DNA of 64,000 bases from a virus (IMGVR_UViG_3300043432_000485:1-64000); one strand, 5' to 3'; counted from the stretch's first letter, positions 4,238-53,540 are shown. Made by a program: numbers and translations. The notes: generated from the letters alone by a model not told the origin.

Positions 4238-4731
4238 TTTGTGACCTCGCACTTGACCCATTGCAGTGGGCCACCGCACGCCACGTGTAGCTCGCATGCG
4301 GCTTTGGCTGCTTTCTTGGCGAGGGTCAAAGCTTGGTCAAGAGTAGTGACCGGATCCGCTACAGAGAGCACCCCGGCCGAGTACTGGGACCCCGAGCCTT
4401 CTGAGGCCCAGTACTTGTGCTTGGTCTCAGAACCAGAGTGGTCGGAAGCCCATAAGCGATCGTTGACCTTGTCGTAGCAGAGGATCCCGAACTCATAGTC
4501 AACCGAACAGTTGGTAAAAAAGTTGCGCACATCTTGGTAGAACTGGATCTCAGCGCGCTTGAAGTGATCGATAATCGCTAGGTTGCCCGAGACAGCAATC
4601 GACACGTATTCGAACTGCACAATTTTGCGCGCTGACTTGGTCCAGATCCTCCCATCGGAACCTGTCACCTGACTGTCGGTGAGCAATATGCAACCTTTTT
4701 TGGGGACCCGGATGCCTACTGCCACTGTCAT
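4234..4731 (-). CDS. Ntn-hydrolase, proteasome-beta/HslV-like protease
   Basis: MT start exposing Thr1, TDSQ, SGN, GSGS, CGG motifs. Confidence 0.65.
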   Translation of the reverse strand: MTVAVGIRVPKKGCILLTDSQVTGSDGRIWTKSARKIVQFEYVSIAVSGNLAIIDHFKRAEIQFYQDVRNFFTNCSVDYEFGILCYDKVNDRLWASDHSGSETKHKYWASEGSGSQYSAGVLSVADPVTTLDQALTLAKKAAKAACELHVACGGPLQWVKCEVTK

Positions 4732-11865: not shown

Positions 11866-12404
11866 ACGTGGTGACCGCTCTGAAGGTAGCGGCCCGGTTT
11901 CTGCGCTCCGATCTGCATCCGCCATTGGGAGATCCCGGCGGAGCGTGCCAGGTCATCAAGCGAATCAAGGACGAAGTGCACAGCCCTGCTCAACAGCGGC
12001 GCCTCATCCAAGAGGTGATGCACGGAGATGACCTGACCAATCAAGAGGCGTTTGAGGTCTATGACGCAGACGTGGAGTCGGGCAACAAGCTGATCCGTAA
12101 GTTTGAGATCGGCTCACATGCTCAGTATCGAATGGACCTAAGAGGGGTCAAGGTCAACGACTTACGGAGGGCATTCATAGCATTCGTGAAGCACTTTGAG
12201 AGGCACAGATCCCTGAAGGATCAGGAGTTTGAGTTCTTGACTGATGCGCTTGCCCGAGGGGTCAAGCTAGAGTTCGAGGACCCACAGACGCACTTGTTTG
12301 TGACCTTCGCGGCTACTACCCCTGGTAGCGTCAAGGTGATCACCACGTATTGGACGAATCGCCCCGGGCACCCAACGGTGCCTCGTGACGGCTGCCCAAT
12401 CTAG
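11862..12404 (+). CDS. Protein with KVAARF motif and DUF4258-like putative RNase domain
   Basis: SHAQYRMDLRGV and C-terminal VKVITTYW. Confidence 0.55.
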   Translation: MNVVTALKVAARFLRSDLHPPLGDPGGACQVIKRIKDEVHSPAQQRRLIQEVMHGDDLTNQEAFEVYDADVESGNKLIRKFEIGSHAQYRMDLRGVKVNDLRRAFIAFVKHFERHRSLKDQEFEFLTDALARGVKLEFEDPQTHLFVTFAATTPGSVKVITTYWTNRPGHPTVPRDGCPI

Positions 12405-12595
12405 CGCGCCATCATCGCCCTGAGCTTCTTCAGGATCTCTTCTCCAACGAGCACAGCCTTGTCGACCTCGACGTCCGAGAGTTGCTTACCTTGCTGATCC
12501 TCGAAGATGTACGCGGCCCCGTTCCCTTTCAGGTCGTTCTCCAGAATTGAGATGAGGCCTGTCAGAATTCTCCGCTTGTGCTCTTTTTTGGTCAT
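12401..12595 (-). CDS. Small hypothetical protein
   Basis: Start overlaps upstream stop. Confidence 0.55.
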   Translation of the reverse strand: MTKKEHKRRILTGLISILENDLKGNGAAYIFEDQQGKQLSDVEVDKAVLVGEEILKKLRAMMAR

Positions 12596-13170
12596 GGCGT
12601 TTGCTCTAGTCTGAATCCACCGGATATCACGTATTCAAACGCATTCAAGATCACTGAAGGGCGATCTTTGAATCCTCCAAGAGCGGTGTTACACCCTCGG
12701 CATAGCAGCCCACGGATTTGTCCTGTGCTATGATCGTGATCCACATGACCCACAGTAACGGGGTCCTTGCAAATGGCGCAAGAGTGCTCTTGCTCTGCCA
12801 TGCGTCGCTCATACTCAGAGCGAGAAATGCCATATTTCTTTTGCAGGAACTTGTAGCGATGGTAAATTGCCTGGTTGGCTTGATCCAGTGGGTCTATGTG
12901 CCCATACTTTGGACCAAGCCTCATGTGTGCAGGATTGATGCAACCAATGGTCTTGCATGTTCGCCTAACGTCTTCCTGTTCAGGTACAGGGCCTCGTTCT
13001 ATTTCGAACATAACCCTGTGCCCTCCGTAGTAGCGGCCCCTCAGGTAAAACTTAGGATTCCGGCGTTTACTGGTGGCCGCTAACCACGGCCAGCAATCAT
13101 CAGCTCCCTTGCGATCAACTTTGGTCCAAAACCTGGAAAGTTCCGATTCGGTTAGGGGTAGTAGAGGCAT
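12592..13170 (-). CDS. Two-domain homing endonuclease (degenerate HNH_3 plus endonuclease VII)
   Basis: RFWTKV..DCWPW..HRV..CINPAH, then CAIC..HVDHDH..GLLC..CN. Confidence 0.8.
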   Translation of the reverse strand: MPLLPLTESELSRFWTKVDRKGADDCWPWLAATSKRRNPKFYLRGRYYGGHRVMFEIERGPVPEQEDVRRTCKTIGCINPAHMRLGPKYGHIDPLDQANQAIYHRYKFLQKKYGISRSEYERRMAEQEHSCAICKDPVTVGHVDHDHSTGQIRGLLCRGCNTALGGFKDRPSVILNAFEYVISGGFRLEQTP

Positions 13171-43240: not shown

Positions 43241-43444
43241 ATGTGGCAATTCATGTTCCCATCTAAAGCTCCCCTGGTGGAGGCTGTGGGGCGTCAGTAT
43301 CGACGCAAGCAGGACACCATGACCTAGGAGCTGGTGGCTATCGACACGACGGCTGACACGGTCAAGCTTCGCGGCCCCGGCTACGGCAAGGGCCACATGA
43401 CGATCAGCCGCACCGAGTTTCAAAAGGATTGGGTAGCAGCATGA
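43241..43444 (+). CDS. Small hypothetical protein interrupted by in-frame TAG (43325-43327)
   Basis: GGTGTA motif upstream; MWQF...DTMT*ELVAID...DWVAA then TGA overlapping coaD ATG. Confidence 0.65.
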
Positions 43445-45238: not shown

Positions 45239-45313
45239 TGGCGGTCCCGAGGTGATTCGAACACCCCTACTGCAATTTTAGAGGTTGCTGCCTGGCCACT
45301 AGGCTACGGGACC
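45239..45313 (-). tRNA. Amber suppressor tRNA, anticodon CUA (tRNA-Trp-like scaffold)
   Basis: Full cloverleaf GGTCCCG/CGGGACC, D stem GCCT/AGGC, anticodon loop CT-CTA-AA, TTCGAAT T loop, G73 and encoded CCA. Confidence 0.93.
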
Positions 45314-45426
45314 ATGTCCTACATCTACACCATTTTATGGATTCTGTCGCGCTCTTTTGTCTGGAGTTTTTGACCGCCCAAGTGTCTTAGGGGTAAGACT
45401 TCCCTCTGAACCAAAGGACACTGAAC

Positions 45427-48872: not shown

Positions 48873-49052
48873 ATGGAATCCATCAAACCCGCCCCATCAC
48901 CTGATTCCGTGCGCCATGCGATGGTCCTGCACCGTCTGGCGAAGCACCCTTTCGAGAGAAGGATTCCAGGCCGCCTCGTACAACAAGACGGCCTGGATAT
49001 CCACATGGTATGCGGGGTATGCTCAGAAGTGATCTATGTGCTGAGCAACTAG
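48873..49052 (+). CDS. Small hypothetical protein with CxxC
   Basis: GGTGTA motif and GGGG SD upstream; not in supplied ORF track. Confidence 0.5.
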   Translation: MESIKPAPSPDSVRHAMVLHRLAKHPFERRIPGRLVQQDGLDIHMVCGVCSEVIYVLSN

Positions 49053-49366
49053 CGGGAGAGGGCCAGGGGTAGAGAGCTAGTGATCCTCCTCCCCTCGGGT
49101 CCGAGCGCGATTGCAGTCAGCTCGTTGTTGCGATCCGGCTCCCTGAATCTGGACACCTGGATGTACCGGCCTTCAGCTTTCTTGGCCAGTGCCTCCAAGG
49201 CATCCTCATTGGGAGCCACCAGTAGCGCTAGGGTGTTGGACTCTTGGTGCCATTGCTTGGCTACCTATCCATGTTCGAAAATGAACTCGGTTATGGCATG
49301 TATTGATTGTACTGCCTGTTGTGCATAGCTTAGATCAGACCTTACAATCACGTATAGTTTCGAGAT
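49049..49366 (-). CDS. PTH2-like protein with in-frame TAG (49265-49267) and no canonical start next to it
   Basis: ISKLYVIVRSDLSYAQQAVQSIHA...EHG*VAKQW..SNTLALL..FREPD.NNELTAIALGP..TSSLPLAL. Confidence 0.8.
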
Positions 49367-49952
49367 ACGTGATCGCCGTTCGCATTGCTGTGGTGTTGTC
49401 ATGAAAATATCCTAGTCCTTGGTTACAGGGGTTACACAGAAGTCCACGAACCCTGCCTGAGACATGGTCGTGATCTACATCGAATCTATTTGGGGTGCCC
49501 CTACATATTGCACATACCCCACCTTGAAAAGCTAACATGTCATTGTATTCATTTAGGGTTATGCCATGTGTTTTCAATAGGTAGCCATTTTTCCTACGTT
49601 CTTGGTTCTTAGCTACCCAGGCTTGCCATACGATTTTTCTCTTCTCTGGATTGGAATTTCTCCAGGCAGTATTTTTAGCCTTTTGGCACGCTTTGCAACA
49701 GCTTTGGAGGCCTCCTTCACCCGACTTGCTGAGGTGATACTCAGTGACTGGTTTAGTTTCCATACAGGTAGAGCAACGTTTGGAGCCGGTTGTTCTAACC
49801 GGGGCGCCATTCTCGGCTCTGGACTTTCTCCATTCCTTAGTGCGTTCCCTCTGACAAAGCTTACAGTAGGCTCCAACCCCCTGGCTACCCCTGGAAGCTT
49901 TGTGAAAGGAATCTATGGGCAACTCTTCTTGACATCTCGAACATTTCTTCAT
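49335..49952 (-). CDS. Endonuclease VII-family homing endonuclease
   Basis: Tandem CxxC zinc modules; CAIC..DVDHDH..RVRGLLC..CN; low GC. Confidence 0.88.
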   Translation of the reverse strand: MKKCSRCQEELPIDSFHKASRGSQGVGAYCKLCQRERTKEWRKSRAENGAPVRTTGSKRCSTCMETKPVTEYHLSKSGEGGLQSCCKACQKAKNTAWRNSNPEKRKIVWQAWVAKNQERRKNGYLLKTHGITLNEYNDMLAFQGGVCAICRGTPNRFDVDHDHVSGRVRGLLCNPCNQGLGYFHDNTTAMRTAITYLETIRDCKV

Positions 49953-49992
49953 ACAGCAGCAGAGCAACAAGAATAGTATTGAGTCAACAGGC

Positions 49993-50568
49993 TTAGAGGC
50001 CATCTGGACCTCCAAAGAGCTTCTGACAGATGGCACGGCCCCGCCGGTCAATCTGTTTCCACTTGATCTTGAATGACGTGCTCTCTGGGCCTCCAAACAT
50101 GGAGGCGTTTGCGTGGATTTCCGCTAGGCCTGAGATCAACAACGTGGGTGCTTCCGGAAGAGCGCAGAACGCATCTATCCCATCAGCTTTCAAGGTGTGG
50201 ATCTTCATGTCGAGCCGCATCAGATTGGCGGAGGCCTGGGTTCCACCTACGCCAAGCCACGTACGGTACGAGACCTCAGCGTGCTCCGGGAACTTGGTTA
50301 TGCCATCTGACTGGCAGTAAGGCTTCCCACAGTCATGATAGGTCGTGTACTCCTCGATGATGTCGATTGGAGCCAACGCGCTTAACAGCTGCCCTCGATA
50401 CTGTTTGATCCAACTGGGCAGTACCCACCAACCCTCTAGATGCCCTCCTTGCAAATAGGAGATCAACTGGAGGGTGTGCCAACGGACTGACAATCCATGG
50501 TCAAACACTGACTGACCTTTGGTTTGTTGACAGTCCTGCATGTCTTGGATGAGGTCAATCTACGTCAT
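49993..50568 (-). CDS. HD-domain protein; proposed start has TAG as codon 3 (50560-50562)
   Basis: YHDCGKP, FP.HA..S; GAGGA SD 5 nt before ATG-ACG-TAG-ATT, in frame with ATG 50541. Confidence 0.75.
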
Positions 50569-50881: not shown

Positions 50882-51210
50882 TGGTGTGCCATCTGGATCT
50901 GGGTCGACGCTCCCTTCACCAATACAGTCGAACCAGTGAGGGGCTCTAGCTCGTTCTGGATGAAACGACGCCGGTAGCGGAAGGCGTCTATCACTCCAGT
51001 CTGCAGCTCTACGAGCCGGTTCAGATCAGTGTGCTCCAGAGTCCTTAGCCACACCTCATAGTCCGAGGCTCCTCCGAACCCGTGCCCTTTCTCTTTGGAG
51101 AAAAGCAGGGACAGGCCGCCCCTTTTCATGGGGGTGGCTTGGAACACTAGACGCTGGAGACGTTTGATCTCAGCCTGCAGCTGTTGAATGGTTTGCTCTT
51201 GCTCGGTCAC
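50848..51210 (-). CDS. Hypothetical coiled-coil protein
   Basis: GTGA coupling with upstream gene. Confidence 0.6.
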   Translation of the reverse strand: MTEQEQTIQQLQAEIKRLQRLVFQATPMKRGGLSLLFSKEKGHGFGGASDYEVWLRTLEHTDLNRLVELQTGVIDAFRYRRRFIQNELEPLTGSTVLVKGASTQIQMAHQWRPACLVWFR

Positions 51211-51566
51211 TCGGCAGCCTCCGTGACCTGGGCCACTACCGGCGCCGCTGCATTCAACCACTGCTCGATAGCTTCGCTGGAAAGTGCCAGCCCTCGCTGA
51301 TCAGCCATGGCTTTCATCCCACGGTTGATCCAGTAGAGGACATTGCGATCGTACTTGGGCTCCACCACATGATGGGGGATTCCGCGCAACATCGCGTAGC
51401 ACAACAACAGGCATCGGGTGTCGCGGCCGTAGCTGCGCTTGTCGTCCCAATGCTGCCAGCGGTCCATACCGCTAGACCCATGGATCAGCTTGCGGATCTC
51501 GCGACTCTCCGCTTCACGTTGACGTAACTCTGCTTTCAATTCCGGGAACTTAGACTTCTTGCTCAT
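51207..51566 (-). CDS. Conserved phage hypothetical protein, first gene of the TAG operon
   Basis: AGGAG SD inside hairpin; R.LLL.YAMLRG.P...VE motif. Confidence 0.75.
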   Translation of the reverse strand: MSKKSKFPELKAELRQREAESREIRKLIHGSSGMDRWQHWDDKRSYGRDTRCLLLCYAMLRGIPHHVVEPKYDRNVLYWINRGMKAMADQRGLALSSEAIEQWLNAAAPVVAQVTEAAE

Positions 51567-51676
51567 GACAATTTCTCCTGTGACTGGGTGTTGACTCGTT
51601 GAAGACAACACGTCACAGGAGGGCCACGCGCGCGAGCCCAACTAGCAATCTACCAGAGATGTCCGTGAATCTGCAT
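51563..51676 (-). promoter_or_regulatory. Leader peptide/attenuator: MQIHGHLW*IASWARARGPPVTCC...EKLS with SD-sequestering hairpin
   Basis: TAG at 51650-51652; hairpin 51575-51621 (CTCCTGTGAC/GTCACAGGAG plus GTGTTG/CAACAC); read-through TGA overlaps next ATG. Confidence 0.8.
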
Positions 51677-51685
51677 AGTGGGCCT

Positions 51686-51713
51686 AATATAGTGGCTATT
51701 GCCTACCTGTCAA
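51686..51713 (-). promoter_or_regulatory. Sigma70-type promoter
   Basis: TTGACA (51708-51713), 16 nt, TATATT (51686-51691), 9 nt before leader ATG. Confidence 0.75.
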
Positions 51714-51731: not shown

Positions 51732-52076
51732 TCACCAATCCCGGTCTTCGTCCATCTCATGACGGCGGCGGCTGCCCTTGTGCTGCTTTCGCGGCCGTGA
51801 AGGCATCTCGGGCGCGGGCTCATACCTGGGCTGCGAACGGTAGACTTCGGGGGCGGGCGCAGCGCGATGCTGGGCGGCTCCGGGATTGAACCCCTGTCCG
51901 GCTGCAGCGGCCTTGCGCTTTGCTCGGCAGCTCGGGCACCGGGTGGGAGGGTTGAACTGCTTCTCGGCAAAGAATGCCTGTTCCCCTGCTGTAAACACAA
52001 ACTTTTCGGGACAATCCCGACACATCTTTTCCTGATCTACGTAATCCGACACTGACTCAGTCTCCTTTGGTTGCAA
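51732..52076 (-). CDS. zf-trcl zinc-ribbon protein
   Basis: CRDC..FVFTAGEQAFFAEK.F..PTRCPSCR. Confidence 0.88.
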   Translation of the reverse strand: MQPKETESVSDYVDQEKMCRDCPEKFVFTAGEQAFFAEKQFNPPTRCPSCRAKRKAAAAGQGFNPGAAQHRAAPAPEVYRSQPRYEPAPEMPSRPRKQHKGSRRRHEMDEDRDW

Positions 52077-52080
52077 ATGG

Positions 52081-52497
52081 TTAGGGCCTCATTTTAGAGA
52101 GGCGGCTCGCTACTTCCTGGGAACCCTTTGAGGAGAGCCCAGATTGACGTCGTATGTTTACCCGCATAACAGGTTCCGCGCTAGTGTTCACAGTGTAGTT
52201 AATGGTGCGCGGAACCGATTCTTCTAGTCCCGGGCGCGCTTGGCGCCGAGCCAGGTCTTTTGAGACCCGCGTCACCAGCAAGAACAGCTCGCTCTTAGCG
52301 GGGTCCCCCTGATTGTGATCGGGGTGCAGCTCTAGGGCAGCCTTCTTGTAGTTCTTGCGTACCTTAATCTTCAGCTTCTTGAGGGATGCCTCTCCTTCCA
52401 GAAAGGGGGCATTTTCTATGCTCTTCAGTTCCGCCTCGGTGACACCAAGGACCTGGTAGGCTCTCTGAAGATCGTATGCTGAAAGTGGCGCGGGCAT
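52081..52497 (-). CDS. J-domain (DnaJ-like) protein
   Basis: AYQVLGV..KNYKKAALELHPDHN. Confidence 0.8.
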   Translation of the reverse strand: MPAPLSAYDLQRAYQVLGVTEAELKSIENAPFLEGEASLKKLKIKVRKNYKKAALELHPDHNQGDPAKSELFLLVTRVSKDLARRQARPGLEESVPRTINYTVNTSAEPVMRVNIRRQSGLSSKGSQEVASRLSKMRP

Positions 52498-52560: not shown

Positions 52561-52959
52561 TTAGGAACGCCCATAGTTAGTGTAGAACACGAGTCCGGAA
52601 GGCATCTCCATAGGCTTGATTTCAACCTCCCCAATCTGAAACAACCCAAAACTGGACGGTGGAGACTCTGGCTTAGGGGGGTACTCTAACAATAGTCCGG
52701 GGTTCTCATTATTGATGAGTGCATAAGCCTCCTTTACCGGCAAAGACAGTCCCCGAGCCGTGTTGGTAGCGGTCGATGAATGATGATCATGGCTGCATCT
52801 GGGTTTGTGAATCACCCAACCAAGGGCTTCTAACTCAGCCTCGTTGTGGGCATGCACCTTCTTAGATTCAATCAGCCATTGACGCTCGCGCTCGAAATCC
52901 TCTGGTGCCCAATTATCTACGCCGAGTCTGCGGATCCCTGGGAATGTTTGTTCGGTCAT
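52561..52959 (-). CDS. Hypothetical protein
   Basis: Start overlaps upstream stop. Confidence 0.6.
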   Translation of the reverse strand: MTEQTFPGIRRLGVDNWAPEDFERERQWLIESKKVHAHNEAELEALGWVIHKPRCSHDHHSSTATNTARGLSLPVKEAYALINNENPGLLLEYPPKPESPPSSFGLFQIGEVEIKPMEMPSGLVFYTNYGRS

Positions 52960-53540
52960 ACCAAACTATCCTTTTTGCTCCATTGGGACAGCTTCACAGC
53001 TGCGCGCTTCAAAGCGTCGGGCTGACTGGCAACCTTCACGCCTGGCAAGCTCAACGGGAACTTGATCACAAGACGGCCAGTGCCTCGGTTGGAGCCCCAG
53101 AGCAGCAGCTCGTGCGCCCCCCAAGAGATCTCCGGGATCTCTCCATCGTAATGAGCTTCAGGGTCCGGATCGTAGGCCAACGTCACGTGGGGCTTGTACT
53201 CCGGATAGTTGTTCGAGTAGGGCATCTTCGCCGCATCGAGCTTGGCCTTTAGTGCATCCCGAAAGTCATGCAGCTCGGGCGAGAAGACCCTGCAGATCAC
53301 TGGCGTACCATCATCGCCCGCTGGGAAGCTGGAAACCCAATTGGTAGACACCGAGAAGGGGAGCGTCTTGGACGTCACTTCATACAACAAGGGAAGCATC
53401 TCCGAGATGCGTTCAATCGGGACGTCCTTTCCAAGATGAATCACCGTGATGTGAGAATGCTGCTCTCGCTTACCCTCTACAGGGATCTCCTGCAGGATTC
53501 TGGACGTCTCTTCGGGGACCGCGATCATCAATGCTGCCAT
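52956..53540 (-). CDS. 2H phosphoesterase (2'-5' RNA ligase superfamily)
   Basis: HITV and PHVTL motifs. Confidence 0.88.
   Translation of the reverse strand: MAALMIAVPEETSRILQEIPVEGKREQHSHITVIHLGKDVPIERISEMLPLLYEVTSKTLPFSVSTNWVSSFPAGDDGTPVICRVFSPELHDFRDALKAKLDAAKMPYSNNYPEYKPHVTLAYDPDPEAHYDGEIPEISWGAHELLLWGSNRGTGRLVIKFPLSLPGVKVASQPDALKRAAVKLSQWSKKDSLV

Follow-up and report, generated by a model that had tools for sequence, protein, structure and literature searches.

In this study, we describe a short leader in a 64,000-nucleotide stretch of viral DNA (IMGVR_UViG_3300043432_000485:1-64000, hereafter the window), which represents the first 64 kb of a 203,362-bp IMG/VR virus record (G000; completeness estimate 43%) with a uniform GC content of 56%. 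The leader lies on the minus strand in front of an operon whose first gene encodes a protein of 119 amino acids (aa). It combines a mini open reading frame (mini-ORF) that ends in TAG, an Arg-Gly-Pro-Pro (RGPP) motif in the same frame beyond this stop, and a hairpin that buries the ribosome-binding site (RBS) of the 119-aa gene. We consider it probable that the leader is an amber-suppression-gated, SecM-like translational switch, in which suppression of the UAG leads to a ribosome stall at RGPP, on the strand that masks the RBS, and turns translation on. We established the anatomy of the leader, its conservation, a coding signature that crosses the UAG, the RNA pairing, the co-occurrence with a tRNA of anticodon CUA (tRNA-CUA) and the presence of other in-frame TAGs. 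What we infer is that the UAG of the leader is decoded, that the ribosome then stalls and thereby opens the RBS, and what purpose this serves.

The leader begins with a sigma-70-type promoter at 51686-51713 (minus strand, as are all window coordinates below unless stated), composed of TTGACA (51713-51708), a 16-nt spacer and TATATT (51691-51686). It matches 11 of the 12 consensus positions; for the folding and pattern statistics, region and window were compared with shuffled sequences, and shuffles of the region yield 0.3 such sites. The ATG of the mini-ORF, at 51676, lies only 9 nt past the -10 box, which leaves no room for a Shine-Dalgarno (SD) sequence, and the mini-ORF mRNA is predicted from this distance to be leaderless or nearly so. 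The mini-ORF (51650-51676) reads ATG CAG ATT CAC GGA CAT CTC TGG TAG, that is, eight sense codons (MQIHGHLW) and a TAG at 51652-51650. Past the TAG the frame continues as IASWARARGPPVTCCLQRVNTQSQEKLS: a spacer of seven codons (IASWARA, 51629-51649), the arrest-type motif RGPP (CGT GGC CCT CCT, 51617-51628) and then VTCCLQRVNTQSQEKLS, up to a TGA at 51565-51563 that overlaps the ATG of the 119-aa gene at 51566. Both the promoter followed almost immediately by an ATG...TAG mini-ORF and the read-through frame ending in a TGA over the next ATG had been proposed in a preliminary description of this DNA, and both are borne out. Since no in-frame ATG, GTG or TTG occurs between the TAG and RGPP, the motif is accessible only by reading the TAG.

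RGPP occurs 18 times in approximately 406,000 six-frame codons of this genome, so that an in-frame RGPP four to seven codons past a given stop is expected by chance with a frequency of about 2e-4. Moreover, neither RGPP nor RAPP is found among the 218 predicted proteins of G000, and a single match to the pattern GGNCAYYTNTGGTAG exists in the window, compared with none in 100 shuffled sequences. The arrest character ascribed to the motif in the preliminary description agrees with published data from other contexts: of the RAPP-like cores placed in ApcA, ApdP and SecM contexts, RGPP arrested ribosomes most robustly, both in vivo and in the PURE system (Fujiwara et al. 2025, PMC12992588). The same report found RAPP-type arrest to be refractory to EF-P and RAPP-like motifs to be excluded from proteomes (PMC12992588).

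The two proline codons open the 5' arm of an RBS-sequestering hairpin (51575-51621) that contains 16 bp in two runs. The 5' arm consists of CUCCUGUGAC (51621-51612) and GUGUUG (51611-51606), the loop spans 51605-51594, and the 3' arm (51593-51575) consists of CAACAC (51593-51588), a CCA bulge and GUCACAGGAG (51584-51575), which includes the AGGAG SD of the 119-aa gene. Pairing and fold thus confirm the earlier proposal of a 16-bp hairpin with CCT CCT in one arm and the SD in the other. The region 51550-51690 folds at -54.6 kcal/mol (z = -4.4), and none of 200 shuffles was equally stable. The hairpin is followed by AAAUUGUCAUG, without a U-tract, and a terminator scan gave no match at the site. 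Hence, it is not an intrinsic transcription terminator, and the set of elements typical of intrinsic-terminator attenuators (a GC-rich hairpin with a U-tract and an alternative antiterminator) is not found here. A search of the 64-kb window against Rfam 15 matched only the tRNA and returned no family for the leader. A stem-loop around the mini-ORF that appeared in the first fold was dropped, as some of its bases precede the probable start of transcription and the other leaders do not conserve it.

To compare homologous leaders, we retrieved the DNA upstream of homologues of the 119-aa protein, independently of leader content, and in a second retrieval scanned the collections with a pattern covering the mini-ORF alone. 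This yielded ten distinct leaders (window, L002, L004/L005, L007, L017/L025, L018, L019, L021, G001/L032 and L046). All ten read M-[QP]-I-x-G-H-L-W, TAG, four, five, six or seven codons, and [A/S]-R-G-P-P, always in frame. They are also preceded by a promoter of the same design, with TTGAC[AT], 16-17 nt, a T-A-x-x-x-T hexamer and an ATG 6-9 nt later. Within the mini-ORF, codons vary without amino-acid change at Ile (ATT/ATC/ATA), Gly (GGA/GGC/GGT), His (CAT/CAC) and Leu (CTC/CTT), and variable sites number 1, 2 and 6 at the first, second and third codon positions. The TGG and TAG codons are invariant: the leader TAG is never TAA or TGA, even though adjacent synonymous sites are saturated, and it is always followed by a purine.

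The coding signature extends across the TAG. Spacers measure 12, 15, 18 or 21 nt, which requires at least four insertions or deletions, each a multiple of three. In every one of the ten leaders the first codon after the TAG is Ile or Val and the last spacer codon is Ala or Ser. Synonymous pairs are frequent in the post-TAG part (TTC/TTT, TAT/TAC, AGT/AGC, CGA/CGG, GCT/GCG, TCT/TCC and ATT/ATC), where pairwise differences number 5, 4 and 18 by codon position (binomial P = 4e-4). Variable sites within RGPP number 0, 0 and 3, with all four proline codons used at the first Pro. Past RGPP the frame is not kept; it ends at a TAA in the loop or at a TGA over the ATG, or it continues into the gene. 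A near-identical pair illustrates this: L004 (2443-2460) and L005 (2444-2460) differ by one C in the C-run of the Pro-Pro codons, which preserves RGPP and shifts the later frame. Such freedom is as expected if translation normally halts at RGPP, and the overall pattern is what would be expected if the UAG is sometimes decoded and the peptide through RGPP matters. The pairing is conserved as well. In every leader the Pro-Pro codons are the partner of GGAG, in most of them the Ala-Arg-Gly codons (GCUCGYGGC) are the partner of the start region, and the consensus structure contains four compensatory pairs.

A leader from a different phage lineage, L031 (1884-2010, plus strand), brings further evidence. 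It encodes MFPTGHT, TAG and IAVEARGPP, its mini-ORF has an SD of its own, and Gly5-His6 occupy the same residue positions as their counterparts in the main family. The codons GCA CGA GGA CCT CCT pair here with GAGGU and CGUGC around a GTG start. This leader precedes a DUF7873 gene, a distant homologue of the 119-aa protein is found further on in the contig, and a tRNA-CUA lies 2.6 kb downstream of the leader (4501-4577). As the amino acids are kept and both the nucleotides and the partner strand are changed, the L031 leader helps, at the level of sequence comparison, to separate peptide constraint from RNA constraint. With L031 included, all 11 leaders encode RGPP without any amino-acid change. 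All ten leaders of the main family and the distant one keep the TAG, the frame that crosses it, RGPP and the pairing that buries the SD, and the read-through attenuation proposed in the preliminary description stands up to this comparison. In L031, the sequence ATG TTG TAG upstream of the distant 119-aa homologue was rejected as a leader, being the end of an ordinary HNH gene.

A candidate decoder of the leader TAG is encoded nearby. The only tRNA that ARAGORN detects in the 203-kb G000 record is a tRNA-CUA with encoded CCA (45239-45313; Rfam tRNA, 51 bits), an amber suppressor that lies on the strand of the leader, 6.4 kb downstream of it. This tRNA has G73, a short variable loop and a CU-CUA-AA anticodon loop. 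In G001 (208 kb) a tRNA-CUA is again the sole tRNA, 5.2 kb from the leader, and in L022 and L025 it lies 5.4 and 4.8 kb from the leader, adjoining a ParB-like gene. These tRNAs share G1, G73 and a YU-CUA-AA loop, and their stems have diverged with compensatory changes, which suggests long maintenance as far as sequences can tell. An octamer, GGTGTAGA, is located 14 nt upstream of the tRNA 5' end in G000 (region 45314-45345).

In-frame amber codons also occur elsewhere in this genome. The gene of a peptidyl-tRNA hydrolase 2 family (PTH2-like) protein (49049-49402) is the farthest from the leader in the block of same-strand genes behind it. A TAG interrupts its frame at 49267-49265, within the stretch covered by the Pfam PTH2 match (35 bits, residues 15-105). 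The TAG falls at one alignment column in three diverged phages, namely the window, L024 (gene at 12332-12658) and L023 (12027-12341), and the same column holds a sense codon in L022, L025, L021 and G001. TAG is also the final stop of this gene in the window and in L023. In addition, a 67-aa gene on the plus strand (43241-43444), upstream of a cytidylyltransferase-like gene, contains a TAG at 43325-43327 that aligns with a Trp codon (TGG) in the L022 orthologue, 79% identical; at the sequence level, this shows that the phage has a need for amber read-through outside the leader. The verified in-frame TAGs of G000 thus comprise these two genes and the leader, and the leader TAG is the sole amber codon conserved in every relative examined.

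A genome-wide reassignment of TAG was considered and rejected, as open reading frame statistics and coding-potential scans reveal no excess of in-frame TAG over TGA or TAA. Crude gene calls under the standard code cover 86% of the genome, and 46 of the 218 calls (approximately 21%) end in TAG. Two long candidates for in-frame TAG, at G000 146712 and 81811, proved to be adjacent genes sharing a frame, and after a comparison between G000 and G001 the PTH2-like gene was the single one left. A TAG at codon 3 of the HD-like gene of the operon (50560) is not supported either, since its homologues start at a later ATG.

The genes behind the leader code for the 119-aa protein, an HD-like protein and the PTH2-like protein. 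The first of them (51207-51566), whose stop overlaps the next start, would be the directly regulated gene. Its product is all-helical, with an AlphaFold 2 model of pLDDT 86 that has no significant fold match in the PDB or in clusters of the AlphaFold database, and it has no Pfam or PHROG match. All 15 homologues are metagenomic, with 50-69% identity, and some of them reside on contigs of 267, 341 and 434 kb, which places the family in a group of huge phages. An endonuclease VII/HNH-type ORF (49335-50096) stands between the HD-like and PTH2-like genes; it is missing in L022 and L025 and is possibly a mobile insertion in the operon.

The switch that we propose would operate as follows. Transcription would begin at or next to the AUG, and a ribosome would start the mini-ORF without an SD. 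In the OFF state, release factor 1 (RF1) would terminate translation at the UAG after MQIHGHLW and the downstream helix would not be reached, leaving the SD of the 119-aa gene buried and, in most relatives, its start codon too. Consistent with this, masking of the footprint of a ribosome at the UAG leaves the RBS as closed as in the free RNA. In the ON state, the UAG would be decoded, most likely by the phage tRNA-CUA, and the ribosome would translate four to seven further codons and then Arg-Gly-Pro-Pro. By analogy with RAPP/RGPP arrest peptides, it would stall once the first Pro codon occupies the P site and the second Pro codon the A site. Its mRNA channel would then hold the Ala-Arg-Gly (anti-start) and Pro-Pro-Val (anti-SD) codons, and the freed RBS would allow translation of the 119-aa gene and, by coupling, of the operon behind it. 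When a ribosome positioned on RGP-P is masked, the RNA 3' of it folds at only -1 to -6 kcal/mol, compared with -32 to -47 kcal/mol for the free leader. Because such arrests are long-lived, little read-through could yield a large output. The purpose may be a checkpoint or timer that ties the operon to active suppression, which would be required once more for the PTH2-like gene.

Several observations weigh against this proposal. Because GCUCGYGGCCCNCCY doubles as the pairing partner of the start region and the SD, RNA pairing constrains these nucleotides as well, and the conservation of RGPP and its third-position variation can partly be explained without translation. In the spacer alone, the bias by codon position is weak (5, 4 and 9). 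The distance from GHLW to RGPP varies, and the nascent chain at the presumed stall would measure merely 16-19 residues, without a hydrophobic segment. One clade (L023, L024 and L026) has no tRNA-CUA within 8-10 kb of the leader, and there are no RNA runs among those carrying this DNA. Finally, opening of the RBS is not guaranteed by the folds, because in silico, if the 5' mini-ORF RNA is allowed to pair across the stalled ribosome, CAUCUCUG can pair anew with the SD, with energies of -10 to -19 kcal/mol; we regard such re-pairing across a ribosome as sterically doubtful. The His-Leu-Trp codons in question, CAUCUCUG (51650-51665), are partly complementary to the SD region (51575-51584) and can replace the Pro-Pro strand as the SD partner in silico when the latter is masked, which may reflect a second lock or chance.

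The same switch could respond to another input, namely to the activity of RF1 or to UAG read-through of any origin in the infected cell, such as a shortage of RF1, suppressors of the host or stress, with the tRNA-CUA serving the other genes with in-frame TAG. The invariance of TAG, the RF1-specific stop, would suit such a sensor, as would the clade that has leaders and lacks a nearby tRNA-CUA, and no release-factor gene is found in the 203-kb record. However, five phage lineages have a tRNA-CUA at a distance of 2.6-6.4 kb from the leader, two records of about 200 kb contain no other tRNA, and the clade without a nearby tRNA keeps the in-frame TAG in its PTH2-like gene and so needs a source of suppressor too. 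This co-occurrence favours sensing of the suppressor tRNA over sensing of RF1 shortage, as judged from gene content, and we consider the RF1 alternative unlikely. The tRNA might even be primarily regulatory in these standard-code huge phages, trans-activating the operon via the leader; we put this forward tentatively, as a possibility that we do not favour. The leader would then be the one target of tRNA-CUA conserved in every relative examined.

Two other explanations dispense with read-through. In one of them, the mini-ORF up to the UAG would encode the whole functional peptide, acting through a nascent-chain or RF1-dependent pause or through ribosome traffic, and RGPP would be a by-product of the anti-SD and anti-start sequence. 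The mini-ORF peptide is indeed strongly conserved, pairing alone could constrain GCUCGYGGCCCNCCY as the complement of the start region and SD, and the variable positions of RGPP are unpaired or paired with A. Yet all ten leaders preserve the frame although their spacers differ in length (12, 15, 18 and 21 nt), synonymous changes are present in the spacer (TTC/TTT, TAT/TAC, AGT/AGC, CGA/CGG and ATT/ATC) and the first codon after the TAG is always Ile or Val. Moreover, the L031 leader keeps A-R-G-P-P with other codons and another partner strand, and a ribosome at the UAG falls short of the helix. We therefore hold this explanation to be quite improbable. Still less credible to us, and in fact very improbable, is that the hairpin merely occludes the RBS independently of translation, under the control of temperature, an RNA-binding protein, a small RNA or RNase processing, with the ORF-like features being irrelevant. 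RBS hairpins control many phage genes, and the present one is stable and conserved, with some covariation; nevertheless, such an occluder matches no Rfam family and leaves unexplained why the mini-ORF varies only synonymously, why TAG is invariant and the frame conserved, why the promoter places the transcript start at the ATG and why there is a link with tRNA-CUA.

The proposed suppression-gated switch shares several traits with known arrest leaders. As in SecM-secA and the RAPP-type arrest peptides ApdA, ApdP and ApcA, a small ORF just upstream of the regulated gene has a C-terminal Arg-(Ala/Gly)-Pro-Pro core, and the arrest site overlaps the strand that pairs with the downstream SD, so that stalling would unmask the RBS. 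By sequence, the leader has two hallmarks of RAPP/RGPP arrest peptides, an R-[AG]-P-P core in a small ORF and an RBS-sequestering structure over the predicted arrest site. In contrast, it shows none of the marks of monitoring substrates (SecM, MifM, VemP and ApdA/ApdP): there is no signal peptide, membrane segment or pulling-force release, the chain reaches only 16-19 residues, and no Sec or YidC gene lies downstream. In those systems release is conditional on secretion, whereas here entry into the arrest would be conditional on UAG suppression; the mRNA would also be leaderless, the leader belongs to a phage genome and the genes under its control have no role in protein localisation.

In trp and his attenuation and in ermC, a short translated leader likewise converts a decoding event into a change of RNA structure, and in ermC the stalled ribosome frees an SD. 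Unlike in these cases, the codon probed here would be a stop read by a suppressor tRNA, and lack of the tRNA would lead to termination rather than stalling. Furthermore, there is no set of 1:2, 2:3 and 3:4 hairpins and no terminator, and the stall would be intrinsic to RGPP instead of being caused by a drug or by starvation. The closest engineered counterparts are amber-codon leader switches, in which a UAG in the leader makes expression dependent on a suppressor tRNA (Liu, Qi, Yanofsky, Arkin 2011, cited in PMC6412442). As far as they are described there, these are synthetic, built on the tna leader and act through Rho-dependent transcription termination, whereas the phage leader is natural and would act on translation initiation via an arrest motif. 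In mammalian AMD1, ribosomes that pass the stop codon are halted at an arrest sequence that is conserved, and this stall is regulatory (PMC13025110). AMD1 differs from the phage leader in being eukaryotic, in relying on spontaneous read-through with a stall 384 nt downstream at a second stop, and in repressing through ribosome queuing without a dedicated tRNA or an RBS hairpin. In code-15 recoded phages, which use a suppressor tRNA-CUA, in-frame TAGs have been proposed to serve translational regulation (Borges et al., 10.1101/2021.08.26.457843). G000 also encodes a suppressor tRNA with a CUA anticodon, but it uses the standard code, does not deplete TAG as a terminator and has few in-frame TAGs; with 56% GC, it comes from freshwater and sediment rather than the gut, and it carries a dedicated cis element in place of TAGs across late genes. 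We found no natural bacterial or phage precedent for an amber-gated arrest leader in the literature.

If our proposal is correct, this leader would be the first natural bacterial or phage switch with stop-codon read-through as its input and a ribosome-arrest peptide as its transducer. As a natural counterpart of the engineered amber-leader switches, it would also parallel AMD1 in prokaryotes. The leader would extend RAPP/RGPP arrest peptides past secretion monitoring and into phage biology, and would give a concrete form to the idea that stop-codon decoding times phage gene expression. Suppressor tRNAs of non-recoded phages have had no clear target, and a conserved cis element offers one. If, as we suggest only tentatively, the tRNA is primarily regulatory, such orphan tRNAs could be parts of translation-state sensing rather than relics or precursors of recoding, and the second amber read-through, in the PTH2-like gene of three phages, would make the response to the level of suppression steep, thresholded or feedback-controlled. 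In practical terms, the leader would constitute a compact, portable part of approximately 110 nt that reports suppression efficiency.

Protein-pattern scans of IMG/VR gave no matches, a 17-nt leader pattern produced only chance matches in the same database (L009-L016), and neither the region nor the 119-aa protein nor the tRNA had a DNA or protein match in a phage GenBank collection. A scan of 185,579 bacterial species genomes for the mini-ORF pattern gave no match and thus pointed to no host or prophage. The sequencing runs that carry this DNA are freshwater, sediment and wetland metagenomes, and reads from four metagenomes show sequence that is either identical or of the L002 type, and nothing else. 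Upstream of the promoter, three neighbouring genes on the same strand encode a treble-clef zinc-finger protein (51732-52076), a DnaJ-domain protein (52081-52497) and a 2H-phosphoesterase (LigT/Acb1-like) protein (52956-53540); L022 has all three, and most other relatives have two of them.

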